A stretch of 26,432 bases of DNA from positions 1-26,432 of IMG/VR virus record IMGVR_UViG_3300017658_000239. The stretch is one strand, 5' to 3'. A program made the position numbers and the translations under genes. The notes beneath the pieces were generated by a model. That model was not told where the DNA came from. It was given only the letters and a program-made list of their open reading frames with translations, and did not search any database. Position 1 is the stretch's first letter. Every line of letters begins with the position of its first letter. Shown here one piece after another: positions 1 through 24,625 of the stretch. Source of the stretch: a virus (lineage: Duplodnaviria; Caudoviricetes).

Positions 1-1260
1 TCAGGCGGTCCGCTTCCCGCCCTCAATCACCTTAAGGCCTCGACTTGCAGGCAACTTGCAGGCAAACAGGGGTCTAAAGGTGCATTTTTGAAGTTCCTCG
101 ATCACCCGTTCCGTGGCTTGCATGCAATCCTGCAGGTATTCCGGATCGAACGATTCGTAGGCGTTCGCCGTCCGCTTCTCGTCGTGCCCGAGCCAGACAT
201 CGCGCTGTTCCTTCGGCACTGGCGGCTTCTCCCTGCGCACCATCGTCGCCATGAAATGGCGAATCGTTCCCGGCGTGAAATTCGGGATATCGCAGTCGGC
301 GGCATGTCTGACGAACGTCCGCTTGATCGCGTCGATCGGTTCGCCGTCCCACATCATCGGCGCCTCGGTAGCTCCTTCCTCATTCGCCCATAGGTCGAGC
401 CAGCCACGCAGGTTGTCGGTCAGTCGGATCTTCGGCCGGTACTTGATCGTCTGCCGGCGTCCAGGCGGGTTGAGGTCGACCGTGCCGAATCGCCGGTTGA
501 CGGTGCGCTCGTTGTCGCGGAAGTCGATGACCGTTTGCGGCCGCGCCCAGGTGTTCAGCGCGAGGATGACGAACCGGAAAAGGTTCTCCTTACGCTTGTC
601 GATCGCGTCGATGAACTTGCCGAACTCCTCGAATGTCGGCAGCCAATCCCGCGGCGTCGGCTCCGGCACGTCGATCAGCTCGGCAACGCGCGCCGCCTGC
701 GTCACCACGTCCGGCGCCATGTCAAGGAGTTGGACCTCGCGCTTGTTGCCGAGCTCGTCGGTGATGACGGCGATTTTCTTTCCAAACCGGAACGATGCCG
801 AAACGACGGAGAGCACGCGAGCGATGTAGGCGGCGGAATGGCTGTGCTTCTCGCGCGACCAACGCATGAACTCGCGTTGGCGAATCGGACCGAAGTCGGC
901 GACGGTCATCGGAGCGTTGAGCCTGAGTTGCGCCTCGAATTGCTCCCATATCGCAATAGCGCGAAAAGCCTGGTCGCCGGACGGCTTCGCCTTCACGTCG
1001 TTCTCGTAATAGTGATCCAGCGCCCGGATCACCGTCACGACTTCAGGCGAACGGTTGCCGACAACAGCGCCGGCGCCCGCCATCTTGATCAGGCGGGTTT
1101 TGGCTTCTTCGAGTATTTCTGTCTTAAGTGAGCGTCGAGGAGTCTGTCGGCTTCCTCGGTCATACCAGTAGGCGTAGAGGACGGGGGTGCCGTGGGCGCG
1201 CCCGACCCAATATCCCCCATATTCGAAGAGCTTTTCCGGGGATAACTTCTTTCTCGGCAC
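1..1260 (-). CDS. int: Tyrosine recombinase / phage integrase
   Basis: 419 aa. Catalytic-type motifs TWARP (R), TIRH, WLGH and a C-terminal Y (ANAYES). GTG start preceded by AAGGAAG. Located at the prophage end. Confidence 0.92.
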   Translation of the reverse strand: MPRKKLSPEKLFEYGGYWVGRAHGTPVLYAYWYDRGSRQTPRRSLKTEILEEAKTRLIKMAGAGAVVGNRSPEVVTVIRALDHYYENDVKAKPSGDQAFRAIAIWEQFEAQLRLNAPMTVADFGPIRQREFMRWSREKHSHSAAYIARVLSVVSASFRFGKKIAVITDELGNKREVQLLDMAPDVVTQAARVAELIDVPEPTPRDWLPTFEEFGKFIDAIDKRKENLFRFVILALNTWARPQTVIDFRDNERTVNRRFGTVDLNPPGRRQTIKYRPKIRLTDNLRGWLDLWANEEGATEAPMMWDGEPIDAIKRTFVRHAADCDIPNFTPGTIRHFMATMVRREKPPVPKEQRDVWLGHDEKRTANAYESFDPEYLQDCMQATERVIEELQKCTFRPLFACKLPASRGLKVIEGGKRTA

Positions 1261-10899: not shown

Positions 10900-10973
10900 C
10901 GGATATTATGCGCAAACGGATTTCCGTCAAGCAAAAAAATGCGCAAACGGATTTTTGATTATGCGCATAATCA
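10900..10973 (-). promoter_or_regulatory. PL promoter with OL operators
   Basis: Minus strand reads CTTGAC-N17-TAATAT. ATGCGCAAACGGAT occurs at 10908-10921 and 10939-10952. Perfect 18-bp palindrome TGATTATGCGCATAATCA at 10956-10973. Confidence 0.85.
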
Positions 10974-11238
10974 GGCCTGCTCGCGCGCGGAAACGCCGAA
11001 TCTCGACCGTTGGAGTTTGTTTGAGACGTTGGAGACGGCATGAGCCGTAGCGCTAGCTACGGCGAACATGCCGCGCGACATCAACGTTGGAGGTTGAGTA
11101 CTACCTCTACGGAATCACCAAGTACGTCTAACGTAGAGCTCTATGTTTGGAGATTATCCAATCCGCGCAGGCGCACCATGCGAGAGCGCGCGCGGGTAGA
11201 CCGCGCGCTCACTGTCGTCAAGCCGAATCATTCGACAG

Positions 11239-11258
11239 GTTCGCAGTTCGTTCTTGAC
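11239..11258 (+). promoter_or_regulatory. Candidate alphaproteobacterial LexA box abutting a -35 element
   Basis: GTTC-GCAGTTC-GTTC at 11239-11253 overlaps CTTGAC at 11253-11258. No strong -10 is seen at canonical spacing. Confidence 0.6.
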
Positions 11259-11307: not shown

Positions 11308-11547
11308 ATGGCGATCAATCATCAAATTCGACCGAAATATCTATCCCGAAATGACGAGATCATTGCGCGACTGCGAGAATCGGCCGGCGCGGCTGCGCCA
11401 CTGGATCAGAAGATGGTTGTGAAACGAAAGGCGGCCGAACTCTCTACCGCGATGGCTCTACTTCACGGCGGAGATTGGCGGGTTGAGATTGATCATGATG
11501 ACGGCTTCGTAGTGGTTCGGCGCCGTTCGCGGCCAGAGCAGATTTGA
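11308..11547 (+). CDS. Small protein convergent with the repressor (candidate antirepressor)
   Basis: 79 aa from the ATG at 11308, MAINHQIRPK...RKAAELSTAMALLHGGDWRVEIDHDDGFVVVRRR. Overlaps the repressor 3' end by 104 nt. The function is inferred. Confidence 0.6.
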   Translation: MAINHQIRPKYLSRNDEIIARLRESAGAAAPLDQKMVVKRKAAELSTAMALLHGGDWRVEIDHDDGFVVVRRRSRPEQI

Positions 11548-11830
11548 TGTTCTTGATCAGAAATCGAACATCTTCGTCGGTCAGGCCGGATATCCTTGAA
11601 AAGAAATATTCGACTTCGGCTTCTTCCCGGACCGGCTGATCTTTAGGCACATCACCAACGATAGTTTCGTAAATCCCGTTGATGATGTCCCTGTTGGGGC
11701 CTTCAGGCTCCGCTGTGCCCGTATACCAACGATGCACGGTTGATTGCGACACGCCAATCCGACGCGCGAGCTCGCCCTGGTTCTCGCCCCCAAGCCGCAT
11801 AATCTCGCGAATTTTATCCTGCATATTCAT
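11444..11830 (-). CDS. XRE-family phage repressor (CI-like, no S24 peptidase domain)
   Basis: NQGELARRIGVSQSTVHRWYTGTAEP HTH. Divergent from cro. Only 128 aa. Confidence 0.88.
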   Translation of the reverse strand: MNMQDKIREIMRLGGENQGELARRIGVSQSTVHRWYTGTAEPEGPNRDIINGIYETIVGDVPKDQPVREEAEVEYFFSRISGLTDEDVRFLIKNIKSALAANGAEPLRSRHHDQSQPANLRREVEPSR

Positions 11831-11839
11831 GGTGCCGGG

Positions 11840-11923
11840 ACGCTAAATCCGTCGGCGGATGTCAGCAAATCCGATCACGGATAAATATCCGCTTGACGGA
11901 AATCCGTTTGCGCATAATATCCG
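11840..11923. promoter_or_regulatory. PRM/PR divergent promoters with three OR operators
   Basis: PR on +: CTTGAC 11892-11897, N17, TAATAT 11915-11920. PRM on -: TTGCTG 11868-11863, N17, TAGCGT 11845-11840. Operators: ATCCG-TCGG-CGGAT 11847-11860, ATCCG-ATCA-CGGAT 11869-11882, ATCCG-TTTG-CGCAT 11902-11915. Confidence 0.85.
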
Positions 11924-11927
11924 CACC

Positions 11928-12155
11928 ATGACTGCAATTCGCCATATTCGCAAAACGGTCTTCGGTGTGAACCAAGCCGAGTTCGCCGCAATAGCAGGCG
12001 TAGCCCAGGCAACGGTTTCGCGCTGGGAGAATGGCGTCTCTCTCTCTCTCGACGAGATGAAGGCCATCCGTGATGCCGCGAAAGAGCGCGGCATTGAGTG
12101 GCATGACCGTTGGTTCTTTGAGGCCCCTGCTACAGCGGAAGGGGACCAATCATGA
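11928..12155 (+). CDS. Cro-like XRE HTH regulator
   Basis: MTAIRHIRKTVFGVNQAEFAAIAGVAQATVSRWENG, 75 aa. The ATG lies 7 nt after the PR -10 with no SD, so the mRNA is likely leaderless. Confidence 0.88.
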   Translation: MTAIRHIRKTVFGVNQAEFAAIAGVAQATVSRWENGVSLSLDEMKAIRDAAKERGIEWHDRWFFEAPATAEGDQS

Positions 12156-12370: not shown

Positions 12371-12731
12371 CGTAGCCATCGCCCATGGCTTGACGCGTGA
12401 CGTCGGCGATCTGCTGGCGCCATCGTCATCGGGCAAGATCAAGCTTGATCTCATCTATCGCGAATTGTCGAAGCGATTGCCTCGCATCAGCCGGCGCCGT
12501 GTGCGAGCGCTGTTCTTTGGTGAGGCCGCCCGCGTCGATTACGAGGAAATGCACGCGCTCAAGGAGTTGCGGGCCGAAGAGGAAGCACGTCGTGCCAAGC
12601 TTAAACTCGCCGCCACGGCGAACCTTCTGGCAGCGCATCTTGCCGCGGAAGGCGCGCCGCTGGATAGCCACCAAATCAGCGCTCTCTGCCGCATCGCTGG
12701 CACTCTGGGTGTATCCGGAGCTGCCGAATGA
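12285..12731 (+). CDS. CII-position DNA-binding regulator (putative)
   Basis: AGGAG SD before the ATG at 12285 (alternative ATG at 12364 is out of frame-checked range, start uncertain). ISRRRVRALFFGEAARVDYEEM is an HTH-like segment. Located after cro. Confidence 0.65.
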   Translation: MFDSKNMESCSTGVDSCSRARRAVRIMSSVAIAHGLTRDVGDLLAPSSSGKIKLDLIYRELSKRLPRISRRRVRALFFGEAARVDYEEMHALKELRAEEEARRAKLKLAATANLLAAHLAAEGAPLDSHQISALCRIAGTLGVSGAAE

Positions 12732-13285
12732 CCCAGCCAACGAAACCATGGCAGGACAGGACGCCAGCGGAGAAGCTGGAAGCCGTCAGGGTCCATATTC
12801 TAGCGGGCACCGCGTACCAGGCGGTTGCGGACGCCCTTGGCGCCCCAAGTAAAGGCAGCATCGCCAGCGTCGTCACCAGGCTGCGAGAGTTGGGCGCGCT
12901 GCCACCGGCGCCGACGAAAGAGCAGGTAGGCGCGATCAATGGCGCCATATCCAGCGTCACCGCCAAGGTTCGGCGCCTCCATGCCGATCACCTGCACGTC
13001 GGCAACATCGCCAACAAGGCCGAGAGCCGCAAAGCCGATCCGGAACTGAAGGTCCAGCGCGCGCTCGCGTTTGATCCTCTCCCCGGTGTCGAGCCGGTGC
13101 CGTTCGTTCCGAACACAGGCTGCAAGTGGCCGGTCGACGGCATCGAAGGCAACGGCCTGCTCGTATGCGGCGCGCCGCGCGACGGCCGCACCTACTGCGA
13201 GGCCCACAAGCGCCTTGCCTATCTCCCTCCCCCGATCCGCATCCGCAACAGAACCGCCGTTCGGGCGGTGGAAAGGCTGCACTGA
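12728..13285 (+). CDS. GcrA-family cell-cycle regulator-like protein
   Basis: N-terminal HTH YQAVADALGAPSKGSIASVVTRL and C-terminal CKWPV...CGAP...YCEAHKRLAY, matching the GcrA CxWP...CG...YCxxH...AY signature. Confidence 0.88.
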   Translation: MTQPTKPWQDRTPAEKLEAVRVHILAGTAYQAVADALGAPSKGSIASVVTRLRELGALPPAPTKEQVGAINGAISSVTAKVRRLHADHLHVGNIANKAESRKADPELKVQRALAFDPLPGVEPVPFVPNTGCKWPVDGIEGNGLLVCGAPRDGRTYCEAHKRLAYLPPPIRIRNRTAVRAVERLH

Positions 13286-13286
13286 C

Positions 13287-13790
13287 ATGGCCCGCGTTCT
13301 TGAAGGCAGAAACCGTGCGACCGCCGACGAGGCGGCCAGCTTCGTCGACGAGTTCGACCGGCTGGAACAGGAACGCGAGCGCAAGCTCGACGAGATCGAC
13401 GCTGAATTCAAGGCGAAGAAGCGCGAGGTCAACGCGAAGATCAACGCCGACCAGAAGAGCCTGCTCACCGATGCCAAGAAGGTCGGCGTGAAGAAGGGCG
13501 TCATTCGCGCGCTCGCCGATCCGCAGAAGCGCCGCCGCAAGGCCCAGGAAGACCTGGAGCGCGCCAACGAGAAGGCCGACGAGGCGATCACCGCGCTCGA
13601 GGCCGAGGATCAGGACTTCGCGAAGGATATCCGCAAGGCACTCGGCGACGACTTCGCCGGCCTGCCGCTCGGCCAGGCGGCCGTTGAGCGCGAGGAAGCG
13701 GAACCGAAGCAGGATCCTGCCACTGCGGCCATCGTCGATGCCTTCGCCAAGGGCGAGGCCAAGAAGGCGGCCAAGGCCGCGAAGCACTGA
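13287..13790 (+). CDS. GapR (DUF2312)-like nucleoid-associated protein (putative)
   Basis: SFVDEFDRLEQER...INADQKSLLTDAKKVGVKKGVIRAL resembles the GapR helices (IERxERLEEEK...DIKxxYAEAKxxGFDxKxLR) with an insertion. ATG at 13287. Confidence 0.55.
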   Translation: MARVLEGRNRATADEAASFVDEFDRLEQERERKLDEIDAEFKAKKREVNAKINADQKSLLTDAKKVGVKKGVIRALADPQKRRRKAQEDLERANEKADEAITALEAEDQDFAKDIRKALGDDFAGLPLGQAAVEREEAEPKQDPATAAIVDAFAKGEAKKAAKAAKH

Positions 13791-13947: not shown

Positions 13948-14553
13948 ATGCTTGTTTTGGGATTGGACATAGCCACGTCCACCGGCGTGTGTTGGATGGA
14001 CACTGCCTTGCCACCATCGCAGTGGCGCTGCCTTGCGATTGAATCGGAAGGTGAGTTTCAGGAGGACAGGACGGGCGACCTCGCCCTTTACCTCAACGAG
14101 GAGTTCGCGATCCGTCGCCCCGATTTCGTGGCCATCGAGATGCCGCGCCGCGACGTCGCCGCCCATCCCAAGCAGGTGTTCGATCCGAAGACCGGCAAGA
14201 TGAAGACCATCCACACGGTCAACGCGGACCAGCTCTTGCTGCCGGCGCTGGCCGCCGCCGCCGCTTCGGTATGCGACCTCGCCGGCGTGCCATGGGGCTG
14301 CGTCCACCAGAAGACGTGGCGGTCGATCTACTTCGGCAAGGGCTTCAAGCCGGCCGGCGACGACTGGAAAGCCCCAGCAATCGATGCGGCGCTCCAGCAG
14401 GATATACCGCTGCCGGAGACGAAGAAGGCGCAGCGGGACGCCGCCGAAGCGGTCGGGATCGCCGCCGCATGGTTCAAGTGCTCGCAGGTCCCCGCCCGTC
14501 ACCATAAGGCCTTCGTCCAGTTGCAGGCCCTTCACCGGAGGGTCGCAGCATGA
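13948..14553 (+). CDS. RuvC-like Holliday junction resolvase (phage type)
   Basis: LVLGLDIATSTG, FVAIEMP, KTWR...FGKG, RDAAEAVGIA. GAGGAG SD. Confidence 0.8.
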   Translation: MLVLGLDIATSTGVCWMDTALPPSQWRCLAIESEGEFQEDRTGDLALYLNEEFAIRRPDFVAIEMPRRDVAAHPKQVFDPKTGKMKTIHTVNADQLLLPALAAAAASVCDLAGVPWGCVHQKTWRSIYFGKGFKPAGDDWKAPAIDAALQQDIPLPETKKAQRDAAEAVGIAAAWFKCSQVPARHHKAFVQLQALHRRVAA

Positions 14554-14657
14554 ACAGTCGGCCAATCCACTCGCTATTCTGCGCCTTCGCCATCGGGGTT
14601 CTGATCGCCTCGATCACCGTTGTGATCTTCGCCACGGTCGGAGGCTTCGGGCCATGA
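14550..14657 (+). CDS. Small single-TM peptide (35 aa), absent from the ORF track
   Basis: ATGA-coupled at both ends with a GGAGG SD. MNSRPIHSLFCAFAIGVLIASITVVIFATVGGFGP. Confidence 0.7.
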   Translation: MNSRPIHSLFCAFAIGVLIASITVVIFATVGGFGP

Positions 14658-15388
14658 TCGTGACCTTCCATTCGACAGGCGGCAACAACCGCATCAATGT
14701 TCTGCATCCTGCATGGGACGGCATCCCCTTCAACGTTGCCGATAGCCTACAGGACTTCGCAAGCCGGCTCTTCCGCGACCCGGACGCCAGCGGCATCCTG
14801 CACTGCCACCTTTCCGACATGGCGGCCCAGATCGTCAGTTCGATCCGCCTCGGGAACGTGAAGAACTGCCTGCTCGTCACCGTCCCCGACGACGGCGACA
14901 TAGGCCGCGCTTCCCAGCGGCGCGGCGATATCCTGCTCGCCGGTGCCGATGACGCCCAGCCATGCAGCATCGACGAGCGTGAACTTGTGCTGCGCATGAA
15001 GGCGATAGCCGGTCGTGGCGATTACATCGACCACCTGCACATCGCCCTGCCCTCGCACTCGATATTCGATTTCGAGACTGGCCAGATCGAAACACGGGAC
15101 GGCCGGAGCATCCGCGTAACGCCGACTGAATCGGCGATCCTGGTCGATCTGGCCCGGCGGCCCGGCGAGACGCGCACCAAGCAACAGATTATGGACGCGA
15201 TCTATGGTGGCGAGGACGAGCCGGAGATGAAGATCATCGACGTGCTGGTGTGCAAGCTTCGCCGCAAGATCATCGAGGCGACTGGCGGGGTCGACGTCGT
15301 CCAGACGATCTGGGGCCGTGGCTATCAGTTCGTGCCTGACGGCTTCCAGCCTGTGTATCGCCCGAACCGCTGGAGGGCGGCGCGGTGA
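14654..15388 (+). CDS. CtrA-like OmpR-family regulator with a degenerate receiver domain
   Basis: IYGGEDEPEMKIIDVLVCKLRRKI...VQTIWGRGY closely matches the CtrA segment [24 protein letters not shown]...IETVWGRGY. Receiver remnants AGADD and ELVLRMKAI are present. ATG at 14654 with GGAGG SD. Confidence 0.88.
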   Translation: MIVTFHSTGGNNRINVLHPAWDGIPFNVADSLQDFASRLFRDPDASGILHCHLSDMAAQIVSSIRLGNVKNCLLVTVPDDGDIGRASQRRGDILLAGADDAQPCSIDERELVLRMKAIAGRGDYIDHLHIALPSHSIFDFETGQIETRDGRSIRVTPTESAILVDLARRPGETRTKQQIMDAIYGGEDEPEMKIIDVLVCKLRRKIIEATGGVDVVQTIWGRGYQFVPDGFQPVYRPNRWRAAR

Positions 15389-15873
15389 GCCAAGATCGAC
15401 CAATTCGCGACATTCTTGCCGAGGCCATGAGACGCGAACGGCTCGGCCTTACCCGGCCATTATGGTCAGACTGGTGTCGCTTCGACAATGAAGGCGGTCC
15501 CGAGCAGTGGCGTCTGCGCGCTGATCACCTGATCCGCCTGCTCGCCACCGAGGGCATGACCGTCTCCCGCGCCGGCGAAGCATCCGTGCCGATCCCGGCA
15601 CCGACGTCGCCGGTGTTCTGGCGCTATCACATGGACGGCAACAAGTCGGAGCGGATGCTCCGTATGGCGGGCGACAAGATTGAGGTCATCCGCGTCGTCG
15701 ACGGTGTTGAGACCGTCCAGATGACCTTTGCCATCGGCGAAGCGCATGACGCCGCGGGCGCGCTGCTGCTCGGCGACAAGGAAACCGCCAAGCGCCAAGG
15801 CATCTTCACCATGCTCTCGGCGGCGCTGGAAGCCTATCGGCTCGACGTCGCTGTCATGGGGCCGAGGCAATGA
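15385..15873 (+). CDS. Hypothetical protein
   Basis: 162 aa, GTGA-coupled, GGAGG SD. Confidence 0.75.
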   Translation: MSQDRPIRDILAEAMRRERLGLTRPLWSDWCRFDNEGGPEQWRLRADHLIRLLATEGMTVSRAGEASVPIPAPTSPVFWRYHMDGNKSERMLRMAGDKIEVIRVVDGVETVQMTFAIGEAHDAAGALLLGDKETAKRQGIFTMLSAALEAYRLDVAVMGPRQ

Positions 15874-17453: not shown

Positions 17454-17641
17454 TCATCGCTGCCCTCGAAACCCGGATCGCCAAGATCGAGGCGGACATC
17501 GCCAAGGAAACGGCGAGCATCGAAGCCGCTATCGCCGCCCGTCAGATTGGCGACGGTTGCTGGCACACCCGTCATCGCCTCGAAACTCAACTCCGTGCGA
17601 CCCTCGCTCTCCGCGATGTGATCAACGAGGTGCAGCCGTGA
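17450..17641 (+). CDS. Hypothetical protein (63 aa)
   Basis: ATG at 17450 (ATGA coupling). Coiled-coil-like. Confidence 0.65.
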   Translation: MIIAALETRIAKIEADIAKETASIEAAIAARQIGDGCWHTRHRLETQLRATLALRDVINEVQP

Positions 17642-20190
17642 GCTCCTATCTCGACTTCCTCCGCGCGAAGATGAAGGTCGCCCCAGCGACAGGCTTCGAT
17701 GTCGATGACGCCGATATCAATCCCGACTTGGCTCCCCATTGCCGCGCCATCGTGAAATGGGCGCTTCAGGGTGGCCGGCGCGGCATCTTCGCCGCCTTCG
17801 GCCTGCACAAGACATCGATCCAGCTAGAGTTGATGCGCCTGATCGGCAAGTTCATCGGCGGCCGTCGGCTGATCGTGTTGCCGCTGGGCGTTCGGCATGA
17901 GTTCTTCGACGAGGTCAAAGAGCGATTCCACGGCGAGTTCGCCATCGAGCTCCGTTTCGTCCGCCGCGACGATGAGGTGACAGACGATGATGTCATCCAC
18001 ATCGCGAACTACGAGAGCGTGCGCGACGGCAAGCTCGACCCTCGCCAGTTCGTCGCGGCATCGCTCGACGAGGCGGCCGTCCTTCGCGGCTACGGCACCA
18101 AGACGTATCAGACGTTCCTGCCGCTGTTCGAAGGCGTCCGCTTCAAATTCGTCGCTACGGCCACGCCATCGCCGAACCGGACCAAGGAACTGATCCACTA
18201 CGCCGGATTCCTGCAGGTCATGGACACCGGCCAGGCGCTGACGCGCTTCTTCCAACGCAACAGCGAGAAGGCGAACGAACTCACCCTATACCCGCACAAA
18301 GAGGACGAATTCTGGCTATGGGTGAATAGCTGGGCGGTCTTCCTGCAATCGCCGGCCGATCTGGGTTTTCCCGATGACGGGTACGTCCTGCCGGAAATGA
18401 CCGTGAACTGGCATGAGGTGCCAACCGACCATACGGCAGCGGGCGTCGATCGCGACGGACAGGGCCTGCTGATCAACGATCCCGGTGCCAGTGTCGTGCA
18501 TGCAGCGCGCGAGAAGCGGGTGAGCATGGATGCCCGCATCGCCAAGATGGTCGACCTGCTCGCCGAGGCTCCCGGTCAGCATTGTGTGCTCTGGCACCAT
18601 CTCGAGGATGAGCGCCGTGCCATAGAGGAAGCGGTGCCCGGTGTCCGCTCAATCTTCGGATCGCAGTTGCTCGATACCAATGAGGAGAACGCCGTCGGCT
18701 TCAAGAACGGCGAGTTCCAGCATCTGGCCACGAAACCGGAAATGTCCGGCGCGGGCTCGAATTTCCAGAAGCATTGCGCCTGGGAAATCTTCGTCGGCAT
18801 CGACGCCAAGTTCCACGACTTCATCCAGGCCATCTACCGCGTCGTGCGCTTCGGGCAGAAGCGGGAATGCCGGATCGACATCATCTATTCGGAAGCCGAG
18901 CGCGGCACCCGGCGCATCCTCGAGGAGAAGTGGGCCGAGCATGACCGCATGATGGAGCGGATGACGGAGATCATCCGGAAGTATGGTCTGGGGCGACTGC
19001 CTCTTGAATCGGTCCTGAAACGCTCCATCGGCGTCGAGCGACAGGTAGAGGAGGGCGAGTATTTCCGCATTGCCCATAACGATTGCGTCGACGAAGCGGG
19101 ACGCGCCGATGCCGACAGCGTTGGTCTGATCATCACGTCGATCCCGTTCAGCAACCACTACGAATACACGGCCAGCTATAATGACTTCGGCCATACCGAC
19201 GACAACGGGCACTTCTGGAGGCAGATGGATTTCCTCACCCCGGAGCTCTTCCGGATCCTGAAGCCCGGCCGCATCTACGCCTGCCACGTCAAGGATCGCA
19301 TCCTGTTCGGCAATGTCACCGGCGCAGGCCTGCCAACTGTCTCCCCCTTCCATGCCGAGGCCATTTTCCATGGCCTGAAACACGGCTTCGACTACTGCGG
19401 CATGATCACGGTCGACACCGATGTCGTCACCGAGAACAACGGCAACTACCGGCTCGGCTATACGGAGATGCTGAAGGACGGCAGCAAGATGGGCGTCGGG
19501 TCGCCCGAATATGTGCTGCTGTTCCACAAGCCCCAAACGGACCGGACGAAGGGCTATGCCGACGAGCGGGTTAGCAAGAGCCGCGAGGAATACAGCCTCG
19601 CGCGCTGGCAGCTTGACGCGCATGCCCACTGGCGCTCCAGCGGCAATCGACTGCTGACGCGCGAGGAGTGGGCGCAGATACCGCCGCGCGCGGTGCCGAA
19701 GGCCTTCCGCGCCTACAGCGAGGCCACGGTCTACGATCACGAGGAAACCGTTGCCATCGGCGAGGTCCTGCAATCGAAGGACCGGCTGCCGACCGAATAC
19801 ATGGCGTTGGCGCCCGTCTCGCATTCCCCGTGGATATGGTCGGACGTGGTGCGCATGCTCACGCTCAACGGCAGCCAGTCCAGCCGGAACGTCGAGAAGC
19901 ATATCTGCCCGCTCCAGTTCGACATCGTCGACCGCCTGATCGACCGGTATTCGAACCCGGGCGATGTCGTCTACGACCCGTTCGGCGGGCTGATGACCGT
20001 TCCCTACCGCGCCATCGCCAAGGGCCGGTACGGGATGGCGTCCGAACTCAACGACGTGTCGTTCAAGGACGGCGTCTACTACTGCCGCGAGGCCGAGGCA
20101 AAGCGGAATGTACCGAGCCTGTTCGACCTGCTGGAGGCTCCGTCGATCGAGCCGAGCATCGACGACCTGACCTCGGAGGCGGCGCAATGA
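17638..20190 (+). CDS. SF2/SNF2-like helicase fused to a beta-class N4/N6 DNA methyltransferase
   Basis: GTG at 17638 with GAGGTG SD. Helicase motifs FGLHKT, LDEA, ATATPSPN, QAIYRVVRFGQ. MTase motif IV ITSIPF lies before motif I VYDPFGGLMT, with HICPLQ between. 850 aa. Confidence 0.9.
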   Translation: MSSYLDFLRAKMKVAPATGFDVDDADINPDLAPHCRAIVKWALQGGRRGIFAAFGLHKTSIQLELMRLIGKFIGGRRLIVLPLGVRHEFFDEVKERFHGEFAIELRFVRRDDEVTDDDVIHIANYESVRDGKLDPRQFVAASLDEAAVLRGYGTKTYQTFLPLFEGVRFKFVATATPSPNRTKELIHYAGFLQVMDTGQALTRFFQRNSEKANELTLYPHKEDEFWLWVNSWAVFLQSPADLGFPDDGYVLPEMTVNWHEVPTDHTAAGVDRDGQGLLINDPGASVVHAAREKRVSMDARIAKMVDLLAEAPGQHCVLWHHLEDERRAIEEAVPGVRSIFGSQLLDTNEENAVGFKNGEFQHLATKPEMSGAGSNFQKHCAWEIFVGIDAKFHDFIQAIYRVVRFGQKRECRIDIIYSEAERGTRRILEEKWAEHDRMMERMTEIIRKYGLGRLPLESVLKRSIGVERQVEEGEYFRIAHNDCVDEAGRADADSVGLIITSIPFSNHYEYTASYNDFGHTDDNGHFWRQMDFLTPELFRILKPGRIYACHVKDRILFGNVTGAGLPTVSPFHAEAIFHGLKHGFDYCGMITVDTDVVTENNGNYRLGYTEMLKDGSKMGVGSPEYVLLFHKPQTDRTKGYADERVSKSREEYSLARWQLDAHAHWRSSGNRLLTREEWAQIPPRAVPKAFRAYSEATVYDHEETVAIGEVLQSKDRLPTEYMALAPVSHSPWIWSDVVRMLTLNGSQSSRNVEKHICPLQFDIVDRLIDRYSNPGDVVYDPFGGLMTVPYRAIAKGRYGMASELNDVSFKDGVYYCREAEAKRNVPSLFDLLEAPSIEPSIDDLTSEAAQ

Positions 20191-20481: not shown

Positions 20482-22728
20482 ATGGCATCCTCCGACTTCA
20501 ACGTGCCAATCGAGCAGGTTGCCCTCCGCGTCCTGCCGGAATTCATGGGAGAGCCGAACAAGGCTCTCTCTTCGCGTTCCGAGCTTCGCTGGGGCAAGAA
20601 CGGCAGCCTGTCGGTCGACCTGACCAAACAGACCTGGCACGATCATGAAGACCAGACCGGCGGCGGCGTGCTCGACCTCCTTCAATCCTTCCGGGGCTAC
20701 ACCAAGCATGAGGCCGTCGAGTGGTTGCAGGACGAGGGCTTTCTCGAGCGCAAGGCCAATCCGAACGGCGCCGCCAACGGCTCTTCGCCGCAGGGCAAGT
20801 TCGCCGGATTCATGGATGATTGGCCGGTTGCCGCCTTCGAATACTTCGATGACCGCGGCCGCCTCGCCTATGAAGTCCTGAAATTCGCCAAGACGGCCCC
20901 GCGCCGCTACATGCAGCGCCGCAAGCACCCGGCCGGCAAGGGCTGGATATGGGGACTGCAGGGCGGCACCTACGGGCAGGTGAAGTCCGGCGACTGGTTC
21001 AAGGCCAAGGAGGGCAAGCACTATCAGGCCGAAGAGACGTTCGACGATGCCGTGCGCTGGCTCTACCGCCGCGACGAGGTCCTGAAGGCGAAGGCCGACG
21101 GCGTCACCGTCTATCTCTGCGAGGGTGAGAAGGACGTCGAGACGCTGCGCAGTTGGGGCCTCACTGCCACCACGAATGCCGGCGGCGCCAAATACTGGAC
21201 CGACGCGTTCGATGCCGATCTCGCCGGCGCCGACGTCATCATCCTGCCAGATAACGACGAGCCCGGCCGGTCCCGCGCCCAGCTCCGCGGCGCCGGCCTG
21301 TTCGGCAAGGCGAAGTCGGTGCGCGTGCTCGACATCGCCGCGCATTGGGACGGCGCGCCCGAAAAGTCCGATGTCACCGATTGGAAGGAGGCGACGGGCG
21401 CCGACGGCGAGAAATTCCGGTACCTCGCCGGCAAGGCCAAGCCATGGCATCCAGAGCGGACACGCGCCTTCGGCGCCTATTACCACGACGAGATCGACGG
21501 CCCAGGCCTTCAACTCGACTACATCATCGACGGCTGGTTCGCGACACGCGGCCGCTCCGTGCTGGGCGGGCCATCAGGATCCGGCAAATCCTTCCTCGCC
21601 CTCCATGCCGCATACTGCATCGCGCGCGGCGTCGATTTCTTCGGCCACCATGTCGAGCAAGGCGGCGTCATCTATCAGGCCGGCGAAGGCGGGACCGGCC
21701 TGAAAAAGCGTCAGCGGGCCTACGTGAAGCACTTCAAAGTCGAGAACGCTGACGATCTGCCCATCGTTGTCCTGCCCGCCAAGGTCGACCTGTTCAGCAA
21801 GGACGGCGATACCGATCGTCTGATCGACGCCATCAAACAGGCGCGCCTCACGATGACAGCCCCGCTGCGCGCCGTCTTCATCGACACGCTCGCCACCGCC
21901 ACGATCGGTGCAGACGAGAACAGCGGCAAAGACATGGGCTACGTGCTCGCCAACATCGCCCGCATCGAGGAAGAGTGCGGCGTCCATGTCTGCCTGGTCC
22001 ACCACATGAACGCCGACGGCAAGAAGCTGCGCGGCCACACCTCGATCCATGCCAACGTCGATACCGTGGTGCAGGTCGTTTGCGACGAGAACACCAAGAT
22101 CAGGACCGCGACCCTGAAAAAGCAGAAGGATGACGAAGACGGGCTGTCCGTCCGGTTCTCCCTGGCATCGGTCGCCGTCGGCTACAACGAGAAAGCCGGC
22201 CGAGACATCACATCATGCGTCGTGCTGTCGGTCAGCGAGAAGGAGCAATTGAAGGCTGAGAAGGAAAAATTCGGCTTCGAGGTGCGGCCATCGGAAGAGG
22301 CGCTTCTGATACCGATGTTCAAGGCCATCGAGAAATACGGCAAGTTCGTCACCTCGGAGGCGGATGGTCCGGTCGAGGCGGTCGGCAAGCATATCGTCGA
22401 CTTCAGCTATTTCCTCGACGTCGCCGTCGAGATGGACGCCTCGAGCGATGAGAAGTCCGCGGCGCGGGAGCGCATCCGGAAAGCCTTCGACCGCAACACC
22501 AAGTTCCTGGTCAAGGCTGGGGTCATCGTCTTCAAGCGCATCAGCGACAAGACGGCCGTGGTGTGGTGGACCGGCAAGCCGATTCGAGGCTTCCCGCACA
22601 CCTTCCCCGAACATATGCGGGATCGGACAAATCCCGGACAAAACCAGGACATTTCCTGGACAAATCCCGCCGCGCCTCTTTCTGCGGGCATGGCGGAAAT
22701 GATCGACAGCGGGGAATCTCTGCTGTGA
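20482..22728 (+). CDS. Primase-helicase (TOPRIM + RepA/AAA_25-type SF4 helicase)
   Basis: TOPRIM motifs YLCEGEKD and IILPDND. Walker A GPSGSGKS, Walker B VFIDT, plus LVHH and LRGHTS. ATG at 20482 with GAGGTG SD. Confidence 0.92.
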   Translation: MASSDFNVPIEQVALRVLPEFMGEPNKALSSRSELRWGKNGSLSVDLTKQTWHDHEDQTGGGVLDLLQSFRGYTKHEAVEWLQDEGFLERKANPNGAANGSSPQGKFAGFMDDWPVAAFEYFDDRGRLAYEVLKFAKTAPRRYMQRRKHPAGKGWIWGLQGGTYGQVKSGDWFKAKEGKHYQAEETFDDAVRWLYRRDEVLKAKADGVTVYLCEGEKDVETLRSWGLTATTNAGGAKYWTDAFDADLAGADVIILPDNDEPGRSRAQLRGAGLFGKAKSVRVLDIAAHWDGAPEKSDVTDWKEATGADGEKFRYLAGKAKPWHPERTRAFGAYYHDEIDGPGLQLDYIIDGWFATRGRSVLGGPSGSGKSFLALHAAYCIARGVDFFGHHVEQGGVIYQAGEGGTGLKKRQRAYVKHFKVENADDLPIVVLPAKVDLFSKDGDTDRLIDAIKQARLTMTAPLRAVFIDTLATATIGADENSGKDMGYVLANIARIEEECGVHVCLVHHMNADGKKLRGHTSIHANVDTVVQVVCDENTKIRTATLKKQKDDEDGLSVRFSLASVAVGYNEKAGRDITSCVVLSVSEKEQLKAEKEKFGFEVRPSEEALLIPMFKAIEKYGKFVTSEADGPVEAVGKHIVDFSYFLDVAVEMDASSDEKSAARERIRKAFDRNTKFLVKAGVIVFKRISDKTAVVWWTGKPIRGFPHTFPEHMRDRTNPGQNQDISWTNPAAPLSAGMAEMIDSGESLL
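22625..22672 (+). repeat. Four 11-bp GGACA tandem repeats (iteron-like array A)
   Basis: GGACAAATCCC GGACAAAACCA GGACATTTCCT GGACAAATCCC GCCG, inside the 3' end of the primase-helicase gene. Confidence 0.85.
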
Positions 22729-24368: not shown

Positions 24369-24412
24369 CCTGAATCCGCCGCGCTCTAGAATCTTGTCAA
24401 GGGAAAAGAACC

Positions 24413-24460
24413 GGACAAAACCCGGACATTTACGGGACATTTCCGGGACAAATCCCGCCG
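24413..24460 (+). repeat. Four 11-bp GGACA tandem repeats (iteron-like array B)
   Basis: GGACAAAACCC GGACATTTACG GGACATTTCCG GGACAAATCCC GCCG, intergenic, upstream of terS. Confidence 0.85.
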
Positions 24461-24625
24461 TGGCGTTTTTGGCGAAAAAACCGTGGTACGCATAACGCGG
24501 CCCTCGCGCGCGTAAACGCTAACCTTGATCTGTTGTGCCACCGGGGCCGGCGCCCACCAGGGCGACCGGCCTACAGCGCACGGCATCGACAGGTAGAGCA
24601 CTACATAGGCAGGAATCTCCATTTC

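Follow-up and report, generated by a model that had tools for sequence, protein, structure and literature searches.

A CtrA-derived atypical response regulator without a phosphorylation pocket in a clade of temperate phages

CtrA of Alphaproteobacteria, as described by the NCBIfam model NF045991, couples a receiver domain to an OmpR-type winged helix. In S. meliloti, it mostly activates, represses minCD and binds the pilA1 and flaA promoters; its proteolysis requires the last three residues, its stabilisation arrests and kills the cells, and its depletion also halts the cell cycle (PMC4433202). Atypical OmpR/PhoB regulators such as ChxR, HP1043 and GlnR combine a winged helix with a degenerate receiver that keeps the alpha4-beta5-alpha5 face, and act without phosphorylation (PMC3960148, PMC12632262). 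These proteins are chromosomal and control their own regulons, and the word "phage" occurs zero times in the available part of a pseudo-receiver review (PMC12632262). That phages read CtrA and carry GcrA is already known. Phage copies of host cell-cycle factors, including GcrA of phiCbK and the CcrM-like methylases of Sinorhizobium phages, have been proposed to shift the state of the host (PMC3556154, PMC9437464), and the available parts of both papers mention analogs of GcrA and CcrM as well as CtrA-binding sites in phages, but no phage-encoded CtrA. Proteins labelled "ctrA" in GenBank from the Roseobacter phages RDJL Phi1 and Phi2, which are lytic and infect another host order, carry the CtrA recognition helix (44% over residues 143-229 of our query) but consist of the DNA-binding domain only, with a different C-terminal part and no receiver. 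A phage ctrA is absent from the available main text of PMC8224337, PMC5730936, PMC8601537 and PMC3070671, and a full-text search, covering main texts and a minority of subscription papers, returned no paper on a phage-encoded full-length or pseudo-receiver CtrA.

Here, we describe P0001, a real, conserved, CtrA-derived atypical OmpR-type response regulator of a clade of temperate phages. Its gene lies in the window, by which we mean the whole stretch of DNA analysed (a virus record of 26432 bases); it covers the left portion of the genome of a lambdoid temperate phage whose host is likely a Mesorhizobium-like soil bacterium (Table 1). Like CtrA, P0001 has a receiver followed by an OmpR-type winged helix, is of equal length, and shares the recognition helix, the adjacent loop and the wing. 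Unlike CtrA, it is phage-borne and additional to the host ctrA, has a basic tail, lacks Asp51, the acidic triad, Ser79, Tyr98 and Lys101, and is only 28% identical to host CtrAs overall (13% over CtrA residues 1-90, 43% over 91-118 and 49% over the DNA-binding domain). It resembles ChxR, HP1043 and GlnR in architecture but differs from them in being phage-borne and in carrying the reading head of an essential host regulator. As with the phage GcrA and CcrM analogs, it is a phage copy of a host cell-cycle factor, and a GcrA homolog is present here too.

Table 1. Coordinates of P0001, its domains and neighbouring features in the window
Feature	Position	Strand	Basis or remark
Integrase	1-1260		
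Exonucleases and RecT/YqaJ		-	
cI-like HTH gene	11444-11830	-	
Promoter-like site before cro	11893..11920	+	Inferred driver of the operon holding the P0001 gene
cro-like HTH gene	11931-12155	+	
GcrA homolog	12728..13285	+	PF07750 E 1e-9, above cut-off; 11/14 related loci
GapR-like gene	13278..13790	+	Weak family match; same operon as the P0001 gene
P0001 gene, CtrA-derived atypical response regulator, 244 aa	14654..15388	+	NCBIfam best model CtrA NF045991
Pseudo-receiver domain, residues 1-123	14654..15022	+	AlphaFold fold, receiver match
His50 codon, at or beside CtrA Asp51 position	14801..14803	+	hhalign His50; MAFFT Leu49
alpha4-beta5-alpha5 face, residues 94-121	14933..15016	+	Invariant L94 G97 A98 D99 D100 Q102 E110 R114 R121
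OmpR-type winged-helix DNA-binding domain, residues 128-230	15035..15343	+	PF00486 E 4e-17
CtrA-type loop and recognition helix, residues 184-206 (CtrA 179-201)	15203..15271	+	Identity to host CtrAs
Basic C-terminal tail ending in Arg	15344..15385	+	Replaces Ala-ending CtrA tail
Conserved gene of unknown function	15385..15873	+	Overlaps P0001 stop codon; 13/14 related loci

The reading frame proposed in the initial annotation is real: GGAGG stands 10-14 bases before the ATG, homologs begin at the same Met, and all of the motifs quoted from the protein were found in it. A longer start at 14384 was ruled out because homologs start at 14654, as was a decaying pseudogene, since the frame is intact and dN/dS is well below 1 in the six measurable pairs. 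A contig of a sequencing run, which may be the window's own source sample, spans 14431-15806 without difference. CtrA was the best NCBIfam model for P0001, at 96 bits with the next model 40 bits lower, and also for the 8 other family members tested; the score of P0001 is below the NF045991 cut-off of 350 bits. In Pfam, only Trans_reg_C was matched (62 bits vs a cut-off of 26), with no PF00072 match in the receiver region. A profile matched host receivers over residues 3-122 (E 2e-11), and an AlphaFold model built on 52 relatives (pLDDT 91) places residues 1-123 in a five-stranded receiver fold, with Z 12-13 to solved receivers (FixJ 1d5w: Z 13.2, rmsd 2.5, 115 aligned), while the modelled winged helix reaches Z 14 to the CadC and ToxR domains.

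The predicted receiver fold is thus kept while all of the phosphorylation residues are missing from P0001. We compared 66 family sequences, comprising 52 relatives and 14 sequences from IMG/VR that partly overlap. The initial annotation had described Asp51 as replaced by His; the loss itself stands, with neither Asp nor Glu in any of the 66 sequences in either register, but the identity of the replacing residue depends on the aligner (Table 1). It had also reported that the N-terminal acidic residues were gone and the conserved KPF replaced, and both observations hold: the triad position reads Ser7-Thr8-gap, and Cys104 stands at CtrA Lys101. By MAFFT, P0001 further has Val77 for Ser79 and Ala101 for Tyr98. 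Across the family, Glu7, Ser/Thr79, Tyr98 and Lys101 are each found in 0/66 sequences, and Asp8 and Asp9 are retained in 3 and 6, respectively. The pocket is equally absent in 49 representatives at 50% identity, collected with an N-terminal profile (E up to 7e-16). His50 is unlikely to be a substitute acceptor because this residue is not conserved (His 24, Arg 21 and Trp 13 of 66).

The alpha4-beta5-alpha5 face, through which OmpR/PhoB proteins dimerise (PMC12632262), has been preserved. The equivalents of CtrA G94, D96, D97, E107, R111 and R118 occur in 66/66 family sequences and in 47-49 of the 49 distant representatives. Identity over this face is 43% to CtrA and 43% to other OmpR proteins; on these alignments, its invariant residues are generic to OmpR and not CtrA-specific. 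Seven further receiver residues, Q33, S37, R41, D42, P43, N71 and Q102, are conserved in the family and not in CtrA.

Kinship with CtrA is concentrated in the DNA-reading part. Over CtrA residues 179-201, P0001 averages 75% identity to 80 host CtrAs and 33% to 20 other OmpR proteins; against L119, 17 of 23 residues are identical in this region and 6 of 9 (67%) in the wing. The earlier description of a nearly CtrA-identical DNA-recognition region is therefore accurate for residues 179-201 and the wing, and does not extend to the whole DNA-binding domain or protein. The strict helix pattern was found in 59/66 family sequences, 28/44 full-length distant representatives and 0/20 other OmpR proteins; the 80 host CtrAs were taken from GTDB by this pattern, so their own count is by construction, and the matches listed in that GTDB scan included host ctrA genes and no P0001-family loci. 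Lys188, Ile189, Asp191, Val192, Cys195, Lys196 and Arg198 are kept in 61-66 of 66 sequences, whereas position 193, otherwise an invariant Phe, holds Leu in P0001; of the 66 sequences, 40 have Leu and 19 have Phe here. The loop before the helix, which varies across the OmpR family (PMC3960148), is CtrA-like (E184 in 61, P185 in 60 and D183 in 52 of 66). The P0001 family has a remodelled helix at 155-165, ahead of the recognition loop, and remodelled positions 172-177, all of them invariant in the 80 host CtrAs; with this helix changed, activation may be lost. P0001 keeps the equivalents of Thr168 and Thr170, whose role in CtrA has been considered elsewhere (bioRxiv 10.1101/739516). By the defining tests, P0001 is not a member of CtrA, yet it probably acts at the sites of CtrA.

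The C-terminal tail has also changed. P0001 ends in Ala-Ala-Arg and so is without a C-terminal Ala-type ClpXP tag. The last residue is Arg in 39/66 family proteins, with Ala-Ala in 1, as compared with Ala in 63/80 host CtrAs, and the last 12 residues carry a charge of +2.7 in the family vs -1.4 in host CtrAs.

The best NCBIfam model, the DNA-binding domain and joint trees and the helix pattern agree on the CtrA kinship of the DNA-binding half, and the alignment and phylogeny that had been suggested as a check group the family with CtrA and not with generic OmpR regulators; assignment to the latter was ruled out by the best model, the tree placement and the absence of the helix pattern from other OmpR proteins. 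All trees were quick searches without bootstrap. In a tree computed from 105 rows and 156 columns, all 30 rows of the family group as a single clade (SH-aLRT 100) that falls inside the CtrA group (95-96). When the outgroup was enlarged by host paralogs, the tree of the DNA-binding domain placed the family sister to CtrA at 95 (LG+G4), and the same grouping was obtained under a mixture model with 34 rows at 86 (range in that analysis, 86-89). The receiver alone was not placed with CtrA in free trees; the constrained grouping was more likely and was not rejected (p-AU 0.67). Intermediates with partly CtrA-like receivers exist (P0216, P0263). Taken at the sequence level, the family descends from the CtrA lineage, inside or sister to CtrA, and these trees leave room for a chimeric origin. 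The family comprises at least 49 clusters at 50% identity in one monophyletic group. By a crude Nei-Gojobori estimate near saturation, dN/dS in six pairs was 0.12-0.31 for residues 1-93, 0.03-0.16 for residues 94-121 and 0.04-0.35 for the third part, and three further pairs were almost without synonymous change in the receiver; these ratios indicate purifying selection on the family. In the comparison of L004 with L006 and L007, the receiver halves are identical at synonymous sites and the DNA-binding halves differ at 51%, a pattern pointing to recombination within the gene.

Named sources of family proteins are Mesorhizobium, Aminobacter and Aquamicrobium, the rest being Rhizobiales. Fifteen family loci were found in IMG/VR, in records of 24-68 kb, while among 50,697 cultured phage records no match covered 80% of P0001. 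At least 4 of 400 genomes of G001's family carry the gene (ten candidates were scored per genome, with one genome unscored); in all four, it sits among phage genes, and all four keep their own ctrA above the NF045991 cut-off. A GapR-like gene led to 22 IMG/VR loci, of which 15 contain both the family gene and the downstream gene at 15385, one (L266) contains a divergent family gene without the latter, and six contain neither. Four of these six share the recombination, GapR-like and primase genes. Because these four sister phages share the early operon but not the CtrA-like gene, the latter is accessory to one phage branch. In the sister phage L261, an unrelated weak Trans_reg_C protein occupies the corresponding stretch, hinting at a slot for a phage-internal regulator.

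Further analysis revealed other CtrA-like sequences in IMG/VR records. Among 25 full-length CtrA-like IMG/VR frames, 11 keep Asp at position 51 and 6 have Glu (L014, L016, L019, L028, L029, L046), as do three proteins of acetic acid bacteria (P0069, P0081, P0085). Replacement of Asp51 by Glu is the phosphomimetic change of laboratory alleles. Eight records (L038, L043, L044, L049, L054, L061, L067, L069) contain only the 3' end of a canonical ctrA, from about residue 173 on, in five cases right at a record terminus, which suggests prophages with ctrA as their integration site. Many others (L032, L037, L039, L041, L042, L047, L048 and most of L052-L080) encode short receiver-less proteins whose CtrA-type helix is often preceded by a coiled coil or a Cys-rich N-terminus.

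The rightward operon runs in the order cro, a cII-like frame, GcrA, the GapR-like gene, a RuvC-like gene, a 35-codon frame that overlaps the start of the P0001 gene, and P0001 itself; it closes with a primase-helicase, followed by both terminase genes. The GapR-like gene is present in 14/14 related loci, with a PF10073 match in 5/11 aligned members (best E 7e-5) and none in the window's own copy. No plus-strand promoter-like site was found from 11920 up to the P0001 gene. Since the P0001 gene follows cro within the operon and has no promoter-like site of its own, we infer that it is an early lytic gene, silent in the prophage state. A role in removing pilus or flagellum receptors from lysogens, as first envisaged, fits this arrangement poorly. 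The downstream gene at 15385 travels with the family gene, as judged from gene neighbourhoods and cluster counts; its relatives fall into 38 protein clusters, and weak ones also occur in phages without the CtrA-like gene. Neither Pfam nor PHROG matched its product, and the fold comparison gave nothing clear (best Z 6.2, to a beta-meander).

Several other features of the window were recorded. A 33-bp inverted duplicate (10900-10932 and 11892-11924) flanks cI, each copy holding an identical promoter-like site, and forms a lambda-like PL/PR pair. A DnaA C-terminal HTH protein (PF08299; 2507-2878, minus strand) and a helicase-methylase fusion (17638-20190, plus strand) are present in 3/14 and 5/14 relatives, respectively. 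A conserved non-coding element with GC-rich inverted arms lies between cI and the leftward promoter (10980-11240, plus strand) and contains the motif AACGTAGAGCTCTA at 11130. Its nhmmer model matched 13/14 family sequences, most of which are in the model itself; its consensus fold shows little covariation, and Rfam had no match anywhere in the window, this element included. No match came from the four sister phages that lack the CtrA-like gene, though their loci might not extend over this region. A related leader precedes the terminase genes (24505-24605) in the window and 7 relatives.

The window contains no TTAA-N7-TTAA site even with one mismatch, as had been noted; this had been taken as a sign of host targets, but 0.75 such sites are expected by chance, so the window alone is uninformative. 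The absence was upheld across ten family phage records (629 kb), which hold 0 perfect CtrA boxes and 9 one-mismatch boxes whose positions are not shared; the 80 host ctrA loci (1379 kb) hold 14 perfect boxes. If the helix still reads CtrA boxes, its targets would lie in the host, because the phage genomes are without perfect boxes. Active avoidance was not supported, as TTAA occurs at its Markov expectation (66 observed vs 58), and a reversed-pattern control (38 sites) was unfair because AATT is over-represented. GGACA repeats, four each at an 11-bp period, lie at 22624-22670 in the 3' end of the primase gene and at 24401-24458 before the late operon, and similar arrays occur in most relatives. 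An 11-bp spacing is typical of OmpR-type sites. The arrays also occur in G414, whose helix is divergent, and their spacing varies with the type of primase more than with that of the helix; they were considered as a P0001 target and judged more likely to be replication iterons.

We tentatively propose, with a confidence slightly short of even, that P0001 is a phosphorylation-independent, always-on dimer that binds to CtrA boxes of the host early in lytic growth and acts like unregulated CtrA. Made after induction or infection, the protein would dimerise without ChpT and may escape CpdR/RcdA/ClpXP turnover. With the CtrA loop beside the helix retained, it would act at host promoters in the manner of CtrA freed from regulation, together with the GcrA and GapR-like proteins of the phage. 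The CtrA regulon would then be expected to lose its coupling to the cell cycle, and the host to stop cycling and dividing during phage replication. ChxR provides a precedent for phosphorylation-free dimers and DNA binding (PMC3960148). Depletion and stabilisation of CtrA both stop the cell cycle in S. meliloti, and therefore a change in either direction is expected to halt host division. The initial annotation had suggested that host replication could be stopped, and a stop through the origin is a Caulobacter feature; the carriers are Mesorhizobium, Aminobacter and Aquamicrobium, and the S. meliloti origin is described, in the available part of PMC4433202, as having no CtrA motifs and not being bound by CtrA, so that origin silencing is not expected in these hosts. 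Against always-on reading of CtrA boxes stand the replacement of Phe193 by Leu in most of the family, the strict helix in only 28 of the 44 distant members, the remodelled 155-165 helix, the unrelated regulator of L261 and the position of the receiver alone outside CtrA in the free tree.

Part of this evidence fits a phage-internal transcription factor, an old ctrA capture that now reads the phage's own sites with incidental effects on the host, which we consider rather unlikely. Recognition helices are altered in 16/44 distant members and clearly different in L017, L020 and L266, other winged-helix genes occupy this stretch in sister phages, and the GGACA arrays before the late operon and in the primase end have the period of OmpR-type sites. 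However, the phages show neither enrichment nor positional conservation of any CtrA-like site, GGACA is unlike TTAA and its arrays vary less with helix type than with primase type, sister phages manage without the gene, and most members retain the host-specific helix.

P0001 might instead be dominant-negative, filling CtrA boxes without activating or trapping host CtrA in inactive heterodimers, and thereby mimic CtrA depletion; we regard this as unlikely. The outcome would be a division block with ongoing replication and loss of flagella and pili. The operon neighbours GcrA and GapR are S-phase factors, and a surface helix invariant in host CtrA is remodelled in the family. When CtrA is depleted in S. 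meliloti, replication is no longer coupled to division and minCD goes up (PMC4433202). Such a state would suit a phage, and pseudo-receiver heterodimers are known (PMC12632262). On the other side, the equal identity of the dimer face to CtrA and to other OmpR proteins gives nothing in favour of CtrA-specific pairing, and the CtrA loop beside the helix has been retained although it is variable in the OmpR family. It is very improbable that P0001 serves chiefly as a decoy or scaffold that binds a host or phage partner through a new pseudo-receiver surface, with DNA binding secondary: the conserved non-CtrA receiver residues and the tight linkage with the gene at 15385 would fit, but in most pairs constraint on the DNA-binding domain equals that on the receiver, and the linkage is broken both by weak relatives of that gene in phages without the CtrA-like gene and by L266.

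Returning to the always-on dimer, a wider reading is possible, though we hold it with considerable doubt: temperate phages of one clade, 52-68 kb in size and infecting Mesorhizobium-like bacteria, may carry an early-operon cell-cycle takeover cassette with which they seize the host CtrA regulon, made up of GcrA, a GapR-like protein and a CtrA that is switch-free and resistant to degradation. In the same reading, phages of Alphaproteobacteria may repeatedly have disconnected CtrA from its phosphorelay, taking three routes seen here, namely Asp51 to Glu, a dead receiver and receiver loss. In rhizobia, bacteroid differentiation is accompanied by CtrA loss. The family offers a natural series of CtrA variants for dissecting the surfaces used in DNA reading, activation and turnover, and may provide a tool for cell-cycle arrest of rhizobia. 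If true, a phage with its own unregulated CtrA would represent a direct hijack of an essential bacterial cell-cycle regulator.
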